14,202 nt of DNA from a virus (UHGV-0304018); one strand, 5' to 3'. Positions 1 through 14,202 are shown, numbered from the stretch's first letter. The notes: generated from the letters alone by a model not told the origin. A program made the numbers and translations.

Positions 1-46
1 GTAATTTCCACATTGACCTCCGGATCTGTTTCTCCCCCTATTTATA

Positions 47-75
47 ATCTTATCATACTGTCAACAGAATGTCAA
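47..75 (-). promoter_or_regulatory. Candidate leftward promoter inside the conserved 110-nt repeat block (copy A)
   Basis: On the minus strand: TTGACA (rc of 70..75), 17-nt spacer, TAAGAT (rc of 47..52). It points at a GTG start at position 11 whose ORF runs off the left window edge. Confidence 0.35.
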
Positions 76-382
76 TGAGAATTATTATCATTCAGGTGTG
101 CTATAGGTGCAAGCAAGTCCACAGCAAAGGGGTAAGCATTATTAATGGCCCCTACCGTGTCAAAACCAGAATCACTTATAGCATTTATGCAATAAGATTG
201 TCAATGGCCCACAATGGATGGAGAGCACTTTTTGTTAAAACTTTGGAGGGTGTTAAACTCAAACCTCATGAGAGGCCCTACAACGCGATTTAAGCATCAG
301 GTAATGCAATTCACTAGGGAGTATGGTTTATCTCGCTGTAGGCGCTAAAATCGCGCTTATTTTCGATTTATGAGTGTCATAT

Positions 383-404
383 TACGTGCATGCACACGCG
401 CGCG
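383..404. repeat. 22-nt strictly alternating purine-pyrimidine tract (tacgtgcatgcacacgcgcgcg) in repeat copy A
   Basis: Read directly. Copy B has an analogous 19-nt tract at the equivalent place with a different sequence. Confidence 0.8.
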
Positions 405-506
405 GAATCCCTCGCTTAAACGGTCCGGATTGGAAACAGAAGTCTCTTATCCGGACTCCACATTATAAAGCTCCGTGCTATAGCACTACGCTCCCCACAC
501 ACAATT

Positions 507-541
507 GGGTGACGTGTCATGTATGGAATACATTGTCACCC
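507..541. promoter_or_regulatory. Large imperfect palindrome GGGTGAC-N21-GTCACCC with nested ATGTAT/ATACAT arms; candidate operator or RNA hairpin (copy A)
   Basis: Arms are exact reverse complements; identical in both repeat copies and flanked by CACACA runs. Confidence 0.5.
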
Positions 542-606
542 CACACAGGCCGACGTAGTCGGTTTAGCTGTATAGCTAAAGTCACAGAGTGACCCACACA
601 CATATT

Positions 607-645
607 GCCTAAAGAGTCGCTAATGCTCTTTAGGCTTTCATTTGT
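607..645 (+). terminator. Rho-independent terminator, rightward (copy A)
   Basis: Perfect 10-bp stem gcctaaagag / ctctttaggc with a 9-nt loop, followed by tttcatttg. Confidence 0.6.
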
Positions 646-698
646 GGGTTAAGCTTTTCCCTTAGAAAACCTTCCCCACTCTCTGATCCCTCCCCATT

Positions 699-1167: not shown

Positions 1168-1726
1168 GTTATGTTGACCGGGTGTCATAACTATGGCCCC
1201 TGGGGCAGTCCATCCTTCCCTCACACAGGACAATGAATACATAAAGAACATGAAAGACTGTTCACACCAACACGCCGATAAATTGCCTGAAGAGGCTTGC
1301 ATGGGGTTATTGTTGTGTGGGTAATGGTGATCATGCTAACAGATTATGTTAATCAGATGTAAATTCCGGTTTTGTGGTCTACAGAGAACAAACTATACTG
1401 GTTAAATGATCAGGGGAATGACTACAAAACAATCAAAAATGTGGGATATAGCCATCTATACGTCTAATGTGCTGTGTGGGGTGTTAGTGCATGCTTACAT
1501 GTAAGTCATTGATTTGAAGGGTTGGGAAAATTGCATTTAACATAATAGATCTTATCTACACTAATAAAGCGCACTACAAAATCTGATTTAAAAATCATGA
1601 TCAGTGGGCACAGAATTTACGTACAGCCACCTGAATAAATAATGTGCACAACATACAGCAAAGCTTAAGAATTAACATAATAGCAACGTGGTCGGCAGTG
1701 GTGTGATATTTGAGAATTGTTAGAAG

Positions 1727-1763
1727 AAAAAAGGGAGGTGGGGGAGCGCCTGCCTGGCACCTC
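1727..1763 (-). terminator. Possible weak leftward terminator in the gene-free region
   Basis: 6-bp stem GAGGTG / CACCTC with a 17-nt loop, followed on the minus strand by CC and T6. No matching promoter was found. Confidence 0.3.
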
Positions 1764-2344: not shown

Positions 2345-3055
2345 TTATTTCATAGGAGAGGTTTCTACGGCTTCACCGTACATCTCATTAAGCATCTTCA
2401 ATGCTTCCATATCAACATTCAGGAGTGTTCCCTCAGTGATCCAGGCGTTATTCTGCCATGCTTCGTGAACGAGTTCACCGTTATACCATCGAGCCGTTCG
2501 TGTAGTTTCTATGCTTACACCGTCCATGTGGCGCATCTGTAGCCAACGATCATTGCCTTTTACATCCTTGCACCATACCGTCAGAACATCTTTATTTTTC
2601 CCAGTAGGTGCCCCACTGTTAACCGCCACTTTAATCTGGTTGCAAGCACCTTTTTCTGCATGATTCCACAGCCAGGCGTGAATCTGGTATTTATCTGTGC
2701 ATCCTATATCTTTAGAGAGATCGCAATCTAGCACACCATAAATATATTTATATGCTTTTACCCTGTCCTCCCATGTAAGATCGGAGACGTTAACCACTTC
2801 TTCATGCTGTGAGTTCACCTCTTCCACATTTGCAGCTGTATTTCCTGTGGGAAGAGAGAAGTAGGCCCAGCCAATAAGCCCCGCGACTATAACCAGACTT
2901 GTTATGACTGCTCCAGGGTGCTCTTTATATTGTGCATGCAGCTTTTTAATATCTTTCCCTACACTCATCACTAGTAATAGAGGCAAAGCAATTACTAACA
3001 CCCATGGACCAAATACAATGCAAGCTAATAGTGTAACAATAATTCCCTTAAACAT
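2345..3055 (-). CDS. Membrane protein, 236 aa: two N-terminal TM helices plus a ~165-aa extracytoplasmic domain with four Cys; function unknown
   Basis: ORF track; hydrophobic segments at about aa 5-30 and 50-68; SD AAGGGG 7 nt before the ATG; own terminator. The superinfection-exclusion or defence role is inference only. Confidence 0.75.
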   Translation of the reverse strand: MFKGIIVTLLACIVFGPWVLVIALPLLLVMSVGKDIKKLHAQYKEHPGAVITSLVIVAGLIGWAYFSLPTGNTAANVEEVNSQHEEVVNVSDLTWEDRVKAYKYIYGVLDCDLSKDIGCTDKYQIHAWLWNHAEKGACNQIKVAVNSGAPTGKNKDVLTVWCKDVKGNDRWLQMRHMDGVSIETTRTARWYNGELVHEAWQNNAWITEGTLLNVDMEALKMLNEMYGEAVETSPMK

Positions 3056-3062
3056 AGTGGTA

Positions 3063-3083
3063 CCCCTTTGCGAGAAGTTGATT
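3063..3083 (-). promoter_or_regulatory. Duplicated leader element AAAUCAACUUCUCGCAAA (minus-strand sense) immediately 5' of the ribosome-binding site of 2345..3055
   Basis: 18 nt identical to the element at 3583..3603; a 12-nt core gcgagaagttga recurs at 8086..8097. Confidence 0.5.
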
Positions 3084-3112
3084 TAAGTTAATAACCTGGT
3101 GGACTGTTCACA

Positions 3113-3451: not shown

Positions 3452-3574
3452 TCACACCTCCACACACAGAGCTAACATCAGGGCTAAAACTCCAACCACC
3501 TCAATTGCCTTAACAATGTGTGGGTGATGAAACCTGGCCTTTTGCCATGCGCTGGCACTGTTCTTGATACCCAT
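3452..3574 (-). CDS. Possible 40-aa peptide with hydrophobic C-terminus (MGIKNSASAWQKARFHHPHIVKAIEVVGVLALMLALCVEV)
   Basis: Hand translation; SD AAGGTGA 5 nt before the ATG; the duplicated leader element lies immediately upstream. Confidence 0.3.
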   Translation of the reverse strand: MGIKNSASAWQKARFHHPHIVKAIEVVGVLALMLALCVEV

Positions 3575-3582
3575 AACTATCA

Positions 3583-3603
3583 CCTTTTGCGAGAAGTTGA
3601 TTT
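3583..3603 (-). promoter_or_regulatory. Second copy of the duplicated leader element, immediately 5' of the ribosome-binding site of the 40-aa ORF
   Basis: Read directly; identical 18-nt core to 3063..3083. Confidence 0.5.
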
Positions 3604-3638
3604 GTTTGCTCGGTTGGGTGCTTTCACTGGCTATGCCA

Positions 3639-3655
3639 GGTGACTTTCAGTCACC
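3639..3655. promoter_or_regulatory. Palindrome GGTGAC-tttca-GTCACC; same half-site as the repeat palindromes
   Basis: Read directly; sits in the divergent control region between the leftward module and the rightward capsid promoter. Confidence 0.4.
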
Positions 3656-3744
3656 CCTTTGGGTGTCTCTATCAATGCTACCCTTCCTTGATTCGAACTA
3701 TAACCGGGTAAATCCCCGGAAAACATTGATATTGATCAAAAGAT

Positions 3745-3775: not shown

Positions 3776-3861
3776 GCGATGAGATGACGTATTGATGGGA
3801 TTGATAGAGGTCTGAAAATACCGTTACTACGCTAATTATTAGAATTTATATAATAAGGGGG

Positions 3862-3890
3862 TTGACAATTTGAGAGAATACTGATATAAT
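3862..3890 (+). promoter_or_regulatory. Perfect consensus sigma70 promoter: TTGACA, 17-nt spacer, TATAAT
   Basis: Read directly: -35 at 3862..3867, -10 at 3885..3890, with an AT-rich upstream stretch. Confidence 0.8.
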
Positions 3891-3896
3891 ATACAT

Positions 3897-4370
3897 ATAC
3901 CGTAAATCAATGGTGAAAGTGATTTGCCGTATTTTCCTCCAAAGTAAAGGCGACCAGGTAGCGGTGCCGCCTTATAAATAACACTACCCTGATCATCGTT
4001 GAGTGGTCGATTAATTCTCCTATTGGGCTAGTTATCCACACAGTTTTCTTTTGCGGGTTTTCTGTGTGGGTAGCTATCCCGAAAGGTATTTCCCCGCTGA
4101 TGTGACCGCAGCCTGAACTGATCCGGGGGAGTGCCTTTCGTGATAGTGCTCTCTAGTAACCGTAACCCATACTGTGAACTATCATCCGACTGTTGTCGGT
4201 TTCCCCATGTGGAATAGCCCCCGCTTGGCTACGGTGCGGGGCTATCTCCCTCTCCTTGTATCAATTTCCCTTTAGATTTCCGGCATAACTTTTCGGCCCG
4301 AGCCTGTCGTGGTTTGAGAGGTTATACCGGAACTCTTTGAGGGGAGTTAATTTAAATCGCAGGTGATCAA
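3897..4370 (+). other. ~470-nt untranslated, hairpin-rich leader between the consensus promoter and the first capsid gene; candidate cis-regulatory RNA
   Basis: No plausible ORF; several strong stems, e.g. ccacacag-N18-ctgtgtgg (4036..4069), ccgac-tgtt-gtcgg (4187..4200), tagcccccgc-N11-gcggggcta, aaggcg-N16-cgcctt. Folds were judged by eye. Confidence 0.5.
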
Positions 4371-4706
4371 ATGAGAGATATGACTATCCGCACACGCGGA
4401 CACATCATTTCATACGCCGCAGATGAGCAATTTTCTATTCGCGACGTTGAAATTAAAAACAAAGTTAAGGCTGAGATTCCGGCTGGCACTGTTGTTGTGG
4501 TGACTGAGGAAGGCGAGGTTGAAACATTCGTTAAAGCAACGCACACCGGTAAAACTCCGCTGCTGGTTGTAGAACGTGCTGAGGTTGGTGACGCTTTTAT
4601 CGTTGTTGCGAACAAAGGTTGCTACATCAATCCGGCCTACGTGGATAAAGAAGGCTTAGCCGCTGTTATTGCTGCCAGCAATGGCGATTTGCGTGTTGCA
4701 CAATAA
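4371..4706 (+). CDS. Putative head decoration protein, 111 aa
   Basis: ORF track; size and position immediately upstream of the major capsid gene, as in lambda D-E; AGGTGA site before the ATG; codon usage typical of a highly expressed gene. Family assignment is by context only. Confidence 0.8.
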   Translation: MRDMTIRTRGHIISYAADEQFSIRDVEIKNKVKAEIPAGTVVVVTEEGEVETFVKATHTGKTPLLVVERAEVGDAFIVVANKGCYINPAYVDKEGLAAVIAASNGDLRVAQ

Positions 4707-5846: not shown

Positions 5847-5877
5847 ATCCCCGTCTTAAGTTTTTGAGGTGTCTTTT

Positions 5878-6129
5878 ATGAAAATTGTTTTATACGGCGA
5901 CCGTGACGACGTGCCTTTTGATATTATCCATATCGATGACGAGGATCTGCCGGAATTCCTGCGTATCTCCACATTTGCCGCCTGCTATGACGTTAGCCGC
6001 CAGGCTATGCATAAATACCGTGAATATAATAAATGCACCTGGGCCGAGACTTTCGAACATTTTATTGCACGCAAACAGGCACAGGACCGCAAAAAAGCCC
6101 TGAATGCCCATAATCGTTTTGCAAAATAA
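5878..6129 (+). CDS. Hypothetical small protein, 83 aa, with a possible HTH (STFAACYDVSRQAMHKY)
   Basis: ORF track ORF 5869..6129, start re-placed at the ATG at 5878 with GAGG 8 nt upstream. Confidence 0.65.
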   Translation: MKIVLYGDRDDVPFDIIHIDDEDLPEFLRISTFAACYDVSRQAMHKYREYNKCTWAETFEHFIARKQAQDRKKALNAHNRFAK

Positions 6130-10285: not shown

Positions 10286-10522
10286 TTATACCTCGCCCTG
10301 TCTTAAAGATTTTGATAATGAAATAGCCCTTTTCAGGGCCTCTTTATCAATATTATATTTCTCCGCCAGCTCTTCGATTGAGAGGCCTTCTGTGTGGGAG
10401 CTACTTTTAATAATGGTGGACCCCTCTTTCGCTGCCTCTGGCAGGTGACCTATTGTCACCCCTTCGGGCGTGTCTTCGGAGTCCTTAACCAGTTTTTGAT
10501 AAATCTTTTCGTAGATATTCAT
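10286..10522 (-). CDS. Hypothetical protein, 78 aa, immediately upstream of the tape-measure gene
   Basis: ORF track; SD AAGG 8 nt before the ATG; stop is 1 nt from the tape-measure ATG. A tail-assembly-chaperone role is inferred from position only. Confidence 0.7.
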   Translation of the reverse strand: MNIYEKIYQKLVKDSEDTPEGVTIGHLPEAAKEGSTIIKSSSHTEGLSIEELAEKYNIDKEALKRAISLSKSLRQGEV

Positions 10523-11484: not shown

Positions 11485-11973
11485 TTAGGCTTTCTGGGCC
11501 ATTGCTTTCTGGACTTTATTTCTATGGCGGCGGTAGATGAATATAAATTCGCGATAAGCACGACTACCGGGCTTAGGCAAACGTTGATTAAGCTCCTTAC
11601 GTGGCAGGATTTCACTCAACAAGCCCCAGATATGAAAGCAGGTTACTTTTAATTCTTTTGCTATCTCTTCAATATTCATCCCACAATTCCACATTAAAAG
11701 AGATTTGCGGCGGCGATCTTCGAAGACATTTCTATCTCTATCTATTTCGTTGTAGACACTGAGGGGAACTCGACACCGTGGATTCCAGGACTCATTATAT
11801 AGTTTTTGGACTTTCTCAAGTTTAACGCCTGTATATTCCGCCACGAATTCAGGGGTAAAGCCCTCGACTAATAAGTGTTTAGCCTGTCGTGTTGGTTGAT
11901 CATCACTGGGGAGATATTTCTGCAGTGCTACCAGTTTTTCAAATTGGGAATCAGAAAGATCAGATTTGAACAT
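11485..11973 (-). CDS. DNA-binding protein, 162 aa, with a sigma70 region-4-like HTH; candidate late-gene activator or small-terminase-like protein
   Basis: ORF track; RRKSLLMWNCGMNIEEIAKELKVT follows the region-4 pattern (R-x-hydrophobic-L-x4-G-x3-EEIA-x2-L-x-V); GGAGA 7 nt before the ATG. Confidence 0.75.
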   Translation of the reverse strand: MFKSDLSDSQFEKLVALQKYLPSDDQPTRQAKHLLVEGFTPEFVAEYTGVKLEKVQKLYNESWNPRCRVPLSVYNEIDRDRNVFEDRRRKSLLMWNCGMNIEEIAKELKVTCFHIWGLLSEILPRKELNQRLPKPGSRAYREFIFIYRRHRNKVQKAMAQKA

Positions 11974-12071
11974 GATTAATTCTCCGAACGTTTAAAAGAT
12001 CAGGGCAATCAATCTAGTTCTAGTGCTTAGTTTGTTTATTTAGTTTGTTTGGGGATAACAGGGGATATTAA

Positions 12072-12257: not shown

Positions 12258-13121
12258 TTATTTTGTAATGGTTAATTCGCCTTTTACAAGCTTGCAGTTG
12301 TTCCACAATCTTTCTTTCGGGGCATCATAGCCATGACTAATATAATCGATGATAATTGTTTTACCTCTTTTAGCTACATGTTGAGCCACCTTAAGGGCCT
12401 GTTCTGTTAAATGCCAATAATCATCTTCTTTCCAGATTCTACCCTCAACGGTGCCTTTAATTTTATCCATCACCTCCGGCCCGTAAAATGCATCTCGCAA
12501 TTCAGAGAGTTTAATGCTCTTCCGATCCTTAAATGTTGCCTGAATCCCTTTGTATTTGGCGTTCATCTCATCACTTGTCAGAATCGGATAACCGTGCTCA
12601 TCTTTCTCACGTTTGCCAGCGTCTCTAAAGCGCTCTCTGCGCTCGTTCTTAGGTTGGGTAGGCAATTGCACCACCTCGGCCTTTTTAGCTTGCTGTGTGG
12701 GTTGTTTTGGGGCTTCCTGTTGATTATCGGGGGCCTCTTTACTAGATCCCACACTGTCGGAGGTTTTAATACCCTGCTCATCACACATCTTGCCAAGCTG
12801 ATCAGGGGTAATTAGCAGTTTGTAATGATTAGATTTGCCTTTACTTTTAACTATTGAAATAAGCCCGGCATTTTCTAGAGATTTAATCGAGTTAATAACT
12901 GTCGGTCTTGAAACATCATAATCGTCTGCTAATCTCTGTTCAGAGATAAATATTTCACAACCTGCAGCATTAAAACTTGCCATCTCACCGTAAATTGTCA
13001 TTTCCAACAAGTTTAAGTGAAATCTTTCTTTATTGGTTGTAGTTTTTGCAATCGGATTTTTAAAAATGTATTTGATGAAACGTTTAAAAAGGGGAGTAAA
13101 ATTTTCCCCGTAATTACTTGC
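12258..13121 (-). CDS. Winged-helix DNA-binding protein, 287 aa (N-terminal wHTH, low-complexity linker, C-terminal domain); replication-initiator-like or antirepressor-like
   Basis: ORF track ORF 12258..13181, start re-placed at the internal ATG at 13121 (GGGGGA site 4-5 nt upstream), which removes the overlap with 13138..13353; wHTH-like segment ISEQRLADDYDVSRPTVINSIKSLENAGLISIV. Confidence 0.75.
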   Translation of the reverse strand, partial: ASNYGENFTPLFKRFIKYIFKNPIAKTTTNKERFHLNLLEMTIYGEMASFNAAGCEIFISEQRLADDYDVSRPTVINSIKSLENAGLISIVKSKGKSNHYKLLITPDQLGKMCDEQGIKTSDSVGSSKEAPDNQQEAPKQPTQQAKKAEVVQLPTQPKNERRERFRDAGKREKDEHGYPILTSDEMNAKYKGIQATFKDRKSIKLSELRDAFYGPEVMDKIKGTVEGRIWKEDDYWHLTEQALKVAQHVAKRGKTIIIDYISHGYDAPKERLWNNCKLVKGELTITK

Positions 13122-13137
13122 CATAATTCCCCCATAA

Positions 13138-13353
13138 TTATTTATTAATGTTATTGGTGTATTTAGCCAGTTCCCGCTCAAGGCGAATGCAATTTAGTTT
13201 TAAAATTGCTTCTTCAATGTGTGGATATTCTCCTTTATGTTTACGAATGAATGCATAAACGGAAGTTTTGCGGAAGTTCCCCTTAAGTACGTTCTCGACG
13301 ATTTCGTCAGTAGTCCAGTTTACCAGCTGGCTGATCGGTCCGGTTTTAGCCAT
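13138..13353 (-). CDS. Small hypothetical protein, 71 aa; possible regulator
   Basis: ORF track; perfect AGGAGG site 8 nt before the ATG. Confidence 0.75.
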   Translation of the reverse strand: MAKTGPISQLVNWTTDEIVENVLKGNFRKTSVYAFIRKHKGEYPHIEEAILKLNCIRLERELAKYTNNINK

Positions 13354-13486
13354 AGTATAAGCCTCCTGTTAGCTCACTAACCTGTGCGATATATGATTAA
13401 AAAGAAACGGGAACTTAAGACAAGCCCCCGCCAGTCTACTAAAGGAAATTCACTATGATGAGAATTACCCTATGCTTTATATTTTA

Positions 13487-13636
13487 TCAGACATTCGTCA
13501 AATTGTCAACAATCTTTTTGTATTTATCTATCATTTTTTCTTCAAGATTGTCGATTGCAGTTACTCCGGCTATGTAGGCAACACCGCACCACAGTACAGC
13601 CAGGTTGATGATCGCTATTGCATCAGTAATTTCCAC
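13487..13636 (-). CDS. Possible small single-TM protein, 49 aa, GTG start; its start lies inside the conserved 110-nt repeat block
   Basis: Hand translation (VEITDAIAIINLAVLWCGVAYIAGVTAIDNLEEKMIDKYKKIVDNLTNV); GGAGG 5 nt before the GTG; competes with a probably spurious plus-strand ORF 13472..13672. Confidence 0.35.
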   Translation of the reverse strand: MEITDAIAIINLAVLWCGVAYIAGVTAIDNLEEKMIDKYKKIVDNLTNV

Positions 13637-13671
13637 ATTGACCTCCGGATCTGTTTCTCCCCCTATTTATA

Positions 13672-13700
13672 ATCTTATCATATTGTCAACCAATTGTCAA
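13672..13700 (-). promoter_or_regulatory. Candidate leftward promoter inside the conserved 110-nt repeat block (copy B)
   Basis: Same TTGACA / 17-nt / TAAGAT arrangement as copy A, upstream of the small ORF 13487..13636, which has a GGAGG ribosome-binding site. Confidence 0.35.
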
Positions 13701-13914
13701 TGAGAATTATTATCATTTAGGTGTGCTATAGGTGCCATAGCCTGCACAGCAGACACAAGCAAGCCCACAAGGGAGGGCACTTTTTGCCTTAAGCGCTCTA
13801 AAATCGATTCTAACGCGATTTAGAGGTCAGGTAATGCAATTGCACTACTCACACTAGTTAATGCAGCCAGAAGGCCATTTAGGGGGCTTATTTTCGATTT
13901 ATGAGTGTATCCTT

Positions 13915-13933
13915 TATATATGTGTGCGTGCAC
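13915..13933. repeat. 19-nt alternating purine-pyrimidine tract (tatatatgtgtgcgtgcac) in repeat copy B
   Basis: Read directly; followed by the palindrome cccgcgcggg. Confidence 0.8.
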
Positions 13934-14089
13934 CCGCGCGGGAGACTCTTTGCTGCCTCCTTCCGGCGCTGGCAAGCTTTCGGCAGCGGTCCACATGTGG
14001 GCCTCATGCTGACGCATTCGCCGGACCACACACAGACCCGAAGGGCTTAGCCATGGGCTAAGGTGCCGTAGGCACTCCCACACACAATT

Positions 14090-14124
14090 GGGTGACGTGT
14101 CATGTATGGAATACATTGTCACCC
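14090..14124. promoter_or_regulatory. Same GGGTGAC-N21-GTCACCC palindrome (copy B)
   Basis: Identical to 507..541. Confidence 0.5.
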
Positions 14125-14137
14125 CCACACACATATT

Positions 14138-14176
14138 GCCTAAAGAGTCGCTAATGCTCTTTAGGCTTTCATTTGT
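14138..14176 (+). terminator. Rho-independent terminator, rightward (copy B)
   Basis: Identical 10-bp stem, 9-nt loop and T-rich tail as 607..645. Confidence 0.6.
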
Positions 14177-14202
14177 GGGTTAAGCTTTTCCCTTAGAAAA
14201 CC

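Follow-up and report, generated by a model that had tools for sequence, protein, structure and literature searches.

The stretch of DNA analysed here, a viral sequence of 14,202 nucleotides (UHGV-0304018; hereafter the window), carries on its minus strand a gene for a 162-aa protein with two helix-turn-helix (HTH) domains, which we tentatively read as a regulator of the morphogenesis genes of a plasmid resembling a phage satellite. The open reading frame (ORF) opens with ATG, has a GGAG Shine-Dalgarno sequence 8 nt upstream and coincides exactly with the 162-aa protein that the original prediction had placed at this site without naming the strand (Table 1); its homologues and their synteny mark it as genuine. 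Nine close homologue clusters, all from E. coli, came from a word-indexed search covering 5.8 billion proteins, an exhaustive phmmer search of 1.84 billion representatives gave 24 matches, and a search with a profile of 15 members found at least 119 homologue clusters across the Enterobacteriaceae, in Escherichia, Klebsiella, Raoultella, Citrobacter, Pantoea, Cronobacter, Brenneria, Leclercia and other genera. Because of these homologues, and because both the N-terminus and the synteny are kept across genera, the ORF is a genuine conserved gene and not a chance reading frame. The close clusters and the clusters from the profile search are without exception annotated as hypothetical, which is also the RefSeq label of the gene in related plasmids. 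The protein, referred to below as the tandem-HTH protein, belongs to no Pfam, NCBIfam or PHROG family and matched no family of the PADLOC defence models at E ≤ 0.01. Related loci were found once in genome contigs and twice in viral contigs, and tblastn of this protein and of the capsid protein of the same window against 50,697 phage genomes, rV5-like helper candidates included, gave no match (E ≤ 1 for this protein). A published description of the protein was not found, although the literature was covered incompletely and an earlier description is possible.

Two AlphaFold2 models were computed from 8 and 81 sequences, with a mean predicted local distance difference test score (pLDDT) of 77.6 and 81.2, respectively. 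Both are all-helical and consist of an N-terminal helix, a first HTH domain (HTH-1), a linker, a second HTH domain (HTH-2), a short helix with a loop, and a long C-terminal helix (residues 138-161). Each HTH domain comprises three helices and spans about the same residues in both models (~26-62 and ~85-121). Structure prediction, put forward with the original prediction as a check on the HTH fold, thus returned two such domains, and the HTH-like stretch suspected in the N-terminal half was borne out as HTH-1, whose top rank in conservation had been missed. The inter-domain linker (residues 63-84) has a pLDDT of 50-66, and with a predicted template modelling score of 0.46 the two HTH domains have no fixed mutual orientation.

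Conservation was analysed over 81 family sequences, which also underlie the per-member profile counts given below. HTH-1, with the signature AKxLLxG...V...V..L, is the most conserved block and forms together with the adjoining WNPRCR motif the best-conserved part of the protein in the alignments. N64, R68 and P133 are invariant, and 90% or more of the sequences keep K32, L35, G38, V44, A45, V55, L58, G98, L101, I104, L119 and R131, so that the family can be recognised by AKxLLxG...V in HTH-1, WNPRCR directly after it and RLP after HTH-2. When HTH-1 and WNPRCR were used alone as a profile in search of domain fusions, only fragments of the protein's own family were retrieved. The WNPRCR motif may form an arm that contacts the minor groove or phosphates. 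In the putative recognition helix of HTH-2 positions 114, 117, 118 and 121 vary, HTH-1 being far more constrained, and the C-terminal helix varies in both length and sequence across the family. The proteins are basic (family median isoelectric point 9.7), with the charge located mainly in the RLP loop and the C-terminal helix. HTH-1 and HTH-2 align in register in hhalign (P = 0.002), and both units of the deep profile match one repeat unit of the tandem-HTH proteins 8vd6 and 2lvs (E = 0.0025). For these two reasons the protein looks like a tandem HTH duplication, and its two units probably arose by internal duplication of one module.

Table 1. Positions of the tandem-HTH gene, its parts and the candidate control elements in the window
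Feature	Position	Strand	Properties and basis
Tandem-HTH gene	11485..11973	-	162 aa, 19.3 kDa, isoelectric point 9.56; stop codon included; ORF list, homologues, composition
Shine-Dalgarno sequence GGAGAA (core GGAG)	11980..11985	-	Sequence reading; kept in the close plasmids L001 and L002
HTH-1, residues 26-62 (helices 26-36, 41-48, 52-61)	11788..11898	-	Models, alignments, column profile
WNPRCR motif, residues 63-68	11770..11787	-	Directly after the third helix of HTH-1, start of the linker; conservation
HTH-2, residues 85-121 (helices 81-96, 101-108, 112-120)	11611..11721	-	Sub-threshold Pfam matches, LuxR-type PDB profile match, models
Short helix and RLP loop, residues 122-137	11563..11610	-	Net charge +3; conservation, model
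Basic C-terminal helix, residues 138-162	11488..11562	-	Net charge +7; alignment, model, composition
Early-operon promoter, sigma-70 type, TTGACA-17-TG-TAAAAT	13481..13509	-	11/12 consensus positions; promoter scan
Capsid-operon promoter, perfect extended sigma-70 consensus, TTGACA-17-TG-TATAAT	3862..3890	+	12/12 consensus positions; candidate control point
Long structured capsid leader	3897..4370	+	RNA fold; candidate read-through control site, putatively linked to the tandem-HTH gene

According to the original prediction, a segment of the protein follows the pattern of sigma-70 region 4 closely. What stands of this is a likeness to the tetrahelical HTH at the level of the superfamily; the closeness was overstated, as Sigma70_r4 (PF04545) reaches 15.2 bits against a gathering cut-off of 24.1 (E = 0.015). 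Sigma70_r4_2 (PF08281) scores 12.8 bits against a cut-off of 25.7, and the Pfam families HTH_40, HTH_23 and KorA are below threshold as well. Within the family Sigma70_r4 is the commonest meaningful Pfam match (9 of 81 members at E < 0.1, best E = 1.1e-5), next to HTH_23 (7/81), KorA (6/81) and Sigma70_r4_2 (4/81), and two homologue clusters carry a precomputed PF04545 match. Region 2 (Sigma70_r2) was not found in the protein at a Pfam E ≤ 1, its N-terminal half being a three-helix HTH and not a sigma-2 bundle. Among PDB entries the family profile fits LuxR-type response-regulator DNA-binding domains best, with weak E values of 0.07-1 over residues 79-129, and PF00196 (GerE) gave no match to the protein at E ≤ 1. 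HTH-2 has the tetrahelical HTH fold and is a region-4/LuxR-like HTH at the superfamily level; since region 2 is missing and the likeness to region 4 does not go beyond that level, the protein is not a sigma factor.

The protein was compared with several known kinds of DNA-binding protein. Relative to sigma-70 region 4 and the LuxR/GerE domains (PF04545, PF08281; PDB 4wt0, 1fse, 1je8) the protein stays below the cut-offs, lacks sigma region 2 as well as a receiver or ligand domain, has an extra HTH ahead of HTH-2, and does not show in its recognition helix the conserved basic and polar residues of region 4.2. It shares with 2lvs, a CRISPR-repeat-binding protein which we take to be Sulfolobus Cbp1, and with paired-domain and Tc3/IS630 bipartite domains the arrangement of two homologous three-helix HTHs in one chain with a flexible linker, and its neighbours in BFVD, all non-significant, are 'homeodomain-like', 'psq-type' and transposase HTH proteins. 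In contrast to these tandem-HTH binders, it has neither a significant whole-chain match (Foldseek against BFVD and all PDB chains) nor a transposase or other catalytic domain, and the WNPRCR linker motif and the RLP loop are specific to its own family. Residues 8-64, i.e. the N-terminal helix and HTH-1, align weakly with KorA/TrfB (PF16509, best E = 0.0031), and a plasmid setting is common to both; however, the protein scores 13.9 bits against a cut-off of 26.7, has a second HTH and occurs in integrated non-plasmid forms too. Two sets of three family members matched transcriptional-repressor PHROGs. The exhaustive search also surfaced a group of long, unrelated proteins (P0015 with 818 aa, P0017, P0019, P0020, P0022, P0023, P0025, P0028 and P0029), which are built of 4-10 tandem HTH units resembling HTH-2 (LYNxGxxxxEIAKxLNVSxxTIxxYIKEL).

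Seven E. coli plasmid records match 49-83% of the window's length at 91-97% identity. Among them are six complete circular plasmids of 13.3-13.7 kb; the seventh record, of 39.6 kb, matches in three places. Sequenced phages gave no match to the window at the DNA level. The two ends of the window (1-671 and 13626-14202) are imperfect direct repeats of 90-100% identity with indels, at a spacing of 13531-13625, as would be consistent with a circular replicon of about 13.5 kb. Judged from these comparisons, the window is consistent with a circular E. coli plasmid of that size. Either this end repeat is an overlap left when a circle was assembled from a heterogeneous population, or a region rich in the 8-mer CCCACACA is truly duplicated in part.

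The plasmid has a capsid module with a gpD-sized decoration-like protein of 111 aa and a major capsid protein of the Phage_cap_E / phrog_29 type (lambda gpD/gpE-like), and it further encodes a Dit-like 'tail tube initiator' (PF21821, phrog_5197), a tail-completion/Neck1 protein (phrog_222, E = 1.6e-29) and a tape-measure protein (TMP) of 713 aa (phrog_5255, E = 1.9e-139). Genes for terminase, portal, protease, sheath and tube are absent from its gene inventory, and a terminase or portal gene was found neither in the window nor in any related locus. The replication protein Rep (12258-13181) is an O-like/DnaD-like winged HTH according to PHROGs, and iterons of 22 nt are located at 753-863. The iterons lie in a 2.3-kb stretch without credible genes (1-2345, about 17% of the replicon), and a comparable gene-free region of 1-2 kb is present upstream of the early operon in chromosomal relatives. 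The early genes are read leftward in the order 71-aa gene, Rep, 48-aa gene and tandem-HTH gene, followed by co-directional genes of 147, 129 and 78 aa up to the TMP, and their orientation and spacing point to a single operon. No canonical terminator was detected downstream of the tandem-HTH gene.

Distant homologues of the gene are found in integrated islands of about 10 kb, which occur in Enterobacteriaceae other than E. coli and have integrases and defence or toxin cargo (Abi_alpha, DarT-NADAR, HigB/M78) on their flanks. The core gene order that they have in common starts with a 142-148-aa gene, a gene of ~60 aa and Rep (236-279 aa), and the tandem-HTH gene follows 6-16 nt after the Rep stop. 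Next come, as optional members, a 114-153-aa gene (PF26210 'Phage_phiTE_211' / phrog_2970) and a TMP of ~720 aa, and the order closes with a non-coding leader of 0.6-1.1 kb, a gpD-like gene, the capsid gene and an HTH gene of ~69 aa. In plasmid forms an extra ORF and about 100 nt are placed between Rep and the tandem-HTH gene. The latter is always positioned after an O-like/DnaD-like Rep and upstream of morphogenesis genes, and in locus L012 no other called gene stands between it and the capsid leader. When eight loci were compared by BLASTP clustering, only the tandem-HTH gene and the first early gene (71/145 aa) occurred in all eight; the tandem-HTH gene is a universal non-structural core gene of this family of satellite-like elements. 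The first early gene, located at 13138-13353 on the minus strand, is a conserved small gene with 71 aa here and 142-148 aa in the islands. Another conserved small gene (5869-6129, plus strand) follows the capsid gene and codes for ~69-86 aa with a MerR/excisionase-like HTH (SALARxLGVSRSTLLDRI).

The conservation of the tandem-HTH protein does not depend on the Rep allele. Among six close plasmids it is 96-98% identical, while Rep, compared with L001, L002 and L015-L018, is 43-99% identical or replaced outright, in L017 by a 'MarR family' protein. Alternative alleles among these otherwise ~93%-identical plasmids also affect the TMP (67-99%) and the 78-aa gene (59-100%); the plasmids are modular and mosaic in structure. 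As the tandem-HTH protein remains stable while Rep is swapped, it is not co-adapted to a given initiator or iteron set. A role in partition only or excision only is made less likely by its presence in plasmid as well as integrated forms.

Several ties lead from the plasmid to rV5-like phages. Identity to the corresponding proteins of rV5-like Vequintavirinae is 46% for the Dit-like protein, which matches their 'tail tube initiator', and 26% for the TMP. At 3621-3672 the window contains a 52-nt double-hairpin element, with a second copy at 10425-10475. Its counterpart, a site without annotation, was found in 53 genome records of phages, nearly all Vequintavirus, at 88-90% identity (second copy 84%). 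The element reads CTGGC-TAT-GCCAG, then GGTGAC-N5-GTCACC, then CCCTTyGGGTG, its stems covary between copies and its loops vary freely. In the phages it is essentially single-copy and lies, at 4001-4052 in both L021 and L022, inside a gene-free region of ~2.5 kb, and among the related plasmids its position differs, three of them having no such element. It may be a helper-derived signal for packaging, replication or regulation. A second common element of 25 nt (window 1704-1728, L021 3391-3415, 92% identity, opposite strand) joins the 2.3-kb region of the plasmid to the Vequintavirus gene-free region and is present in most related plasmids.

The window has 13 copies of the 8-mer CCCACACA, where 0.43 would be expected, on the plus strand at 494, 540, 593, 14077 and 14124 and on the minus strand at 1124, 1314, 1473, 3517, 4063, 6299, 10391 and 12694, with three plus-strand and three minus-strand copies flanking the iterons symmetrically. 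An 8-kb phage region that includes the gene-free region has six copies against 0.23 expected. All E. coli plasmid relatives contain 4-10 copies, chromosomal relatives 0-1, and altogether the DNA features shared with the phages occur in the E. coli plasmids, including the divergent L013 and L014, and are absent from the chromosomal relatives of other genera. The satellite setting that the original prediction had in mind is thus supported by the capsid, decoration-like, tape-measure, Dit-like and tail-completion genes, the lack of terminase, portal and protease, and the rV5-like ties. We infer from the sequences that the element is a phage satellite, the E. coli members of which would exploit rV5-like virulent myoviruses. 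Few plasmid satellites are known according to a 2025 review (PMC12282955). For this type of capsid-carrying element, seen in the window and in loci L001-L019, a published description was not found either, with the same incomplete coverage of the literature and the same possibility of an earlier one.

Both operons have promoters of the sigma-70 type (Table 1). The early promoter (13481-13509) and the capsid promoter (3848-3893) have 46 nt in common at 74% identity (inverted repeat I1), including TTGACAATTTGA and CTGATAnAATATA, a likeness which suggests a common operator and possible co-regulation of the early and capsid promoters. The capsid leader is strongly folded, with a minimum free energy of -172.9 kcal/mol for 3897-4375 (479 nt) against -138.3 ± 5.8 kcal/mol for shuffled sequences (z = -5.96). 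In the divergent plasmids L013 and L014 the promoter agrees with the consensus at 11/12 positions, and the leader, of 0.5-0.7 kb, has terminator-like hairpins. In the chromosomal locus L009 a promoter-like site and conserved stems are followed by two tandem intrinsic terminators just before the gpD-like gene, and the aligned leaders of L003, L005, L011 and L012 have terminator-like hairpins at the position of the L009 terminators. Compensatory changes support 10 of 40 predicted pairs in the chromosomal leaders. The leader of the window gave no BLASTN alignment with the chromosomal leaders, and in MAFFT few conserved columns were obtained for the window.

These promoters bear directly on the late-gene activator considered in the original prediction, for which we found no positive evidence. 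A capsid promoter with 12/12 consensus positions, or 11/12 as in L013 and L014, should not need an activator, which disfavours the classical late-activator idea and favours repression or read-through control; that a weak late promoter is activated in the classical manner is unlikely. Control of the capsid genes is more plausibly located in the long structured leader, a leader that contains terminators in relatives.

We favour, with a probability of roughly 40%, the reading that the tandem-HTH protein is a sequence-specific DNA-binding regulator of the morphogenesis module which acts through promoter or leader control. The protein would be made from the early (replication) operon and would read a bipartite DNA site, one HTH per half-site with the linker arm in between. 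Its point of control would be the strong sigma-70 promoter together with the long terminator-containing leader ahead of the capsid genes, and it would act by repression or by read-through control of the antitermination type. Consensus promoters and structured leaders of 0.5-1 kb, with terminators in the relatives, call for a negative or read-through regulator. A position at the end of the early block is that of late regulators such as lambda Q. Like lambda Q and Mu Mor/C, the protein is small, predicted to bind DNA and encoded at the end of the early (replication) block upstream of structural genes, and in these systems a strong constitutive promoter leads through a leader with terminators into the structural genes. 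This layout is found here as well, with adjacency to the capsid module in the integrated forms only; in the plasmid the capsid module and the early operon point in opposite directions. A profile or fold match to the Q family or to Mor/C (PF08765) was not obtained.

A number of observations weigh against this regulatory role. Searches of the profile libraries Pfam, NCBIfam, PHROGs and PADLOC yielded nothing beyond generic HTH matches below threshold, and no specific regulator family reached significance by profile or by fold. Both putative recognition helices have a rather hydrophobic character (HTH-1 LEKVQKLY, HTH-2 CFHIWGLLS) with few conserved basic or polar residues, and the invariant polar residues are located in loops, so that a protein-binding role for one of the HTHs is possible. 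The window's own leader showed no canonical terminator, no 10-mer is common to at least five of eight capsid leaders as a family-wide DNA motif would be, and a DNA motif accompanying the gene throughout the family was not found. Two candidates for family-wide target sites, the GGTGAC-N5-GTCACC double hairpin and CCCACACA, were rejected, because they are absent from the chromosomal relatives that carry the gene and are confined to the E. coli plasmids and Vequintavirus DNA. There are also other candidates for a regulator or packaging factor: the first early gene and the HTH gene after the capsid gene, both coding for small HTH-like proteins of the core, could each take such a part, and the plasmid has in addition an 86-aa HTH gene beside the capsid promoter.

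The tandem-HTH protein might instead determine packaging specificity, as the original prediction had also proposed with its small-terminase-like factor. In such a TerS-like role the HTHs would bind a pac-like site of the satellite and the basic C-terminal region would recruit the large terminase of the helper, directing satellite DNA into capsids made of the satellite's own capsid protein. Elements that carry capsid genes without a terminase need some packaging solution, and this gene is among their very few universal non-structural core genes. Precedents exist, since Staphylococcus aureus pathogenicity islands (SaPIs) encode their own TerS and Rpp is a packaging redirector of E. coli phage-inducible chromosomal islands; like these, the protein is a small satellite protein with an N-terminal HTH from an element without its own large terminase. 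It has, however, neither sequence or profile similarity to SaPI TerS and Rpp nor a predicted oligomerisation domain, and it is encoded in the replication operon rather than beside the capsid genes. The TerS family phrog_7067 is matched weakly by 3 of 81 members (best E = 0.0024) but reaches only E = 0.055 with the protein itself, with no stretch passing alone, and Pfam terminase families were not matched at E ≤ 1. The models contain no TerS-type oligomerisation hairpin or beta-barrel, only a single C-terminal helix that is not conserved family-wide, and the tblastn search gave no relative in sequenced phages, the rV5-like candidates included. Moreover, the short helper-derived DNA elements could be signals that the helper recognises without any TerS. 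We thus found no positive evidence for a small-terminase-like factor and regard it as unlikely. A target on the helper's DNA is in our view distinctly unlikely: the protein would then bind capsid or late promoters or the gene-free region of the helper and silence or redirect it, much as CapR of the Vibrio PLE represses the ICP1 capsid operon. An element that supplies its own capsid protein might gain from silencing that of the helper, as this would favour satellite-sized capsids, and a conserved target outside the plasmid would agree with the high conservation of HTH-1 in E. coli plasmids whose Rep, TMP and leader differ. CCCACACA and the 52-nt element would offer sites common to plasmids and Vequintavirus, but these phage-shared motifs are missing from chromosomal relatives that carry the gene, and CapR-type similarity was not seen in any search with the protein.

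Two further roles depend on the neighbourhood of the gene and on its likeness to sigma factors. In the islands the short distance from Rep suggests co-translation, and with a Rep that matches O-like/DnaD-like PHROGs the protein could be a replication accessory that organises the origin or recruits the helicase, as a positional analogue of lambda P after O. Such a partnership fits poorly with a protein that hardly varies while Rep diverges or, in L017, gives way to a different initiator, and with the ORF and ~100 nt that separate the two genes in plasmid forms; similarity to helicase loaders was not found, and we consider this role very unlikely. It is still more improbable that the protein appropriates RNA polymerase, docking on the core enzyme or the beta-flap with a sigma3-linker-sigma4-like structure and retargeting transcription. 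Sigma70_r4 does lead the Pfam matches of the family, hydrophobic 'recognition' helices could be protein interfaces, and the top of the Foldseek list consists mostly of sigma chains whose sigma3-linker-sigma4 part superposes on the two HTHs. These Foldseek matches are nevertheless all non-significant (best E = 0.38, TM-score about 0.2), sigma region 2 is absent, and the element's own promoters have an ordinary sigma-70 consensus.

The tandem-HTH protein is in any case a new family with a known fold, whether it functions as a regulator, a packaging factor or otherwise. If the favoured regulatory reading is extended, the protein would found a new class of satellite regulators, one with a bipartite HTH and a Q-like logic on an unrelated fold; infection by an rV5-like helper phage (Vequintavirus) would trigger read-through of the leader and expression of the satellite's capsid and tail genes, and the gene would be the signature of an undescribed family of capsid-encoding satellites of virulent myoviruses, with plasmid as well as integrated members. 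This combined scenario we regard as doubtful. The main value of the gene is that of a marker, and possibly a switch, of an apparently undescribed satellite family: among the non-structural markers of these small plasmids and islands it is the one conserved most reliably. The elements carry lambda D/E-like capsid genes, sometimes with tape-measure, Dit-like and tail-completion genes, and have no terminase or portal. The rV5-like virulent phages to which these elements are tied are candidates for phage therapy. Should the protein prove to be the switch or a packaging determinant, its signature AKxLLxG...WNPRCR...RLP would serve to detect such elements in genomes, and it would provide a handle on the induction and packaging of a satellite of a large virulent myovirus as well as insight into a possible route of plasmid and defence-gene transfer in the Enterobacteriaceae.

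Two smaller observations concern neighbouring sequences. In chromosomal relatives a conserved hairpin pair (..CCGTGAC(G/A)GCCTG..CCTnTACAGGAA..) is located just upstream of the ribosome-binding site (RBS) of the gene that follows the tandem-HTH gene (L003 7712-7813, L005 10589-10724, L009 10580-10684, L012 10472-10600), and the changes in its stems are apparently compensatory. In the window a 21-nt repeat, D8, occurs at 3064-3084, at 3583-3603 and, weakly, at 4333-4353. It was considered as an operator, but from reading the sequence we judge a duplicated 5'-untranslated region with RBS more likely, as it forms this region for two minus-strand ORFs. These encode a predicted membrane protein of 236 aa (2345-3055) and a hydrophobic peptide of 43 aa (3452-3583), which may be cargo or a toxin-like gene.

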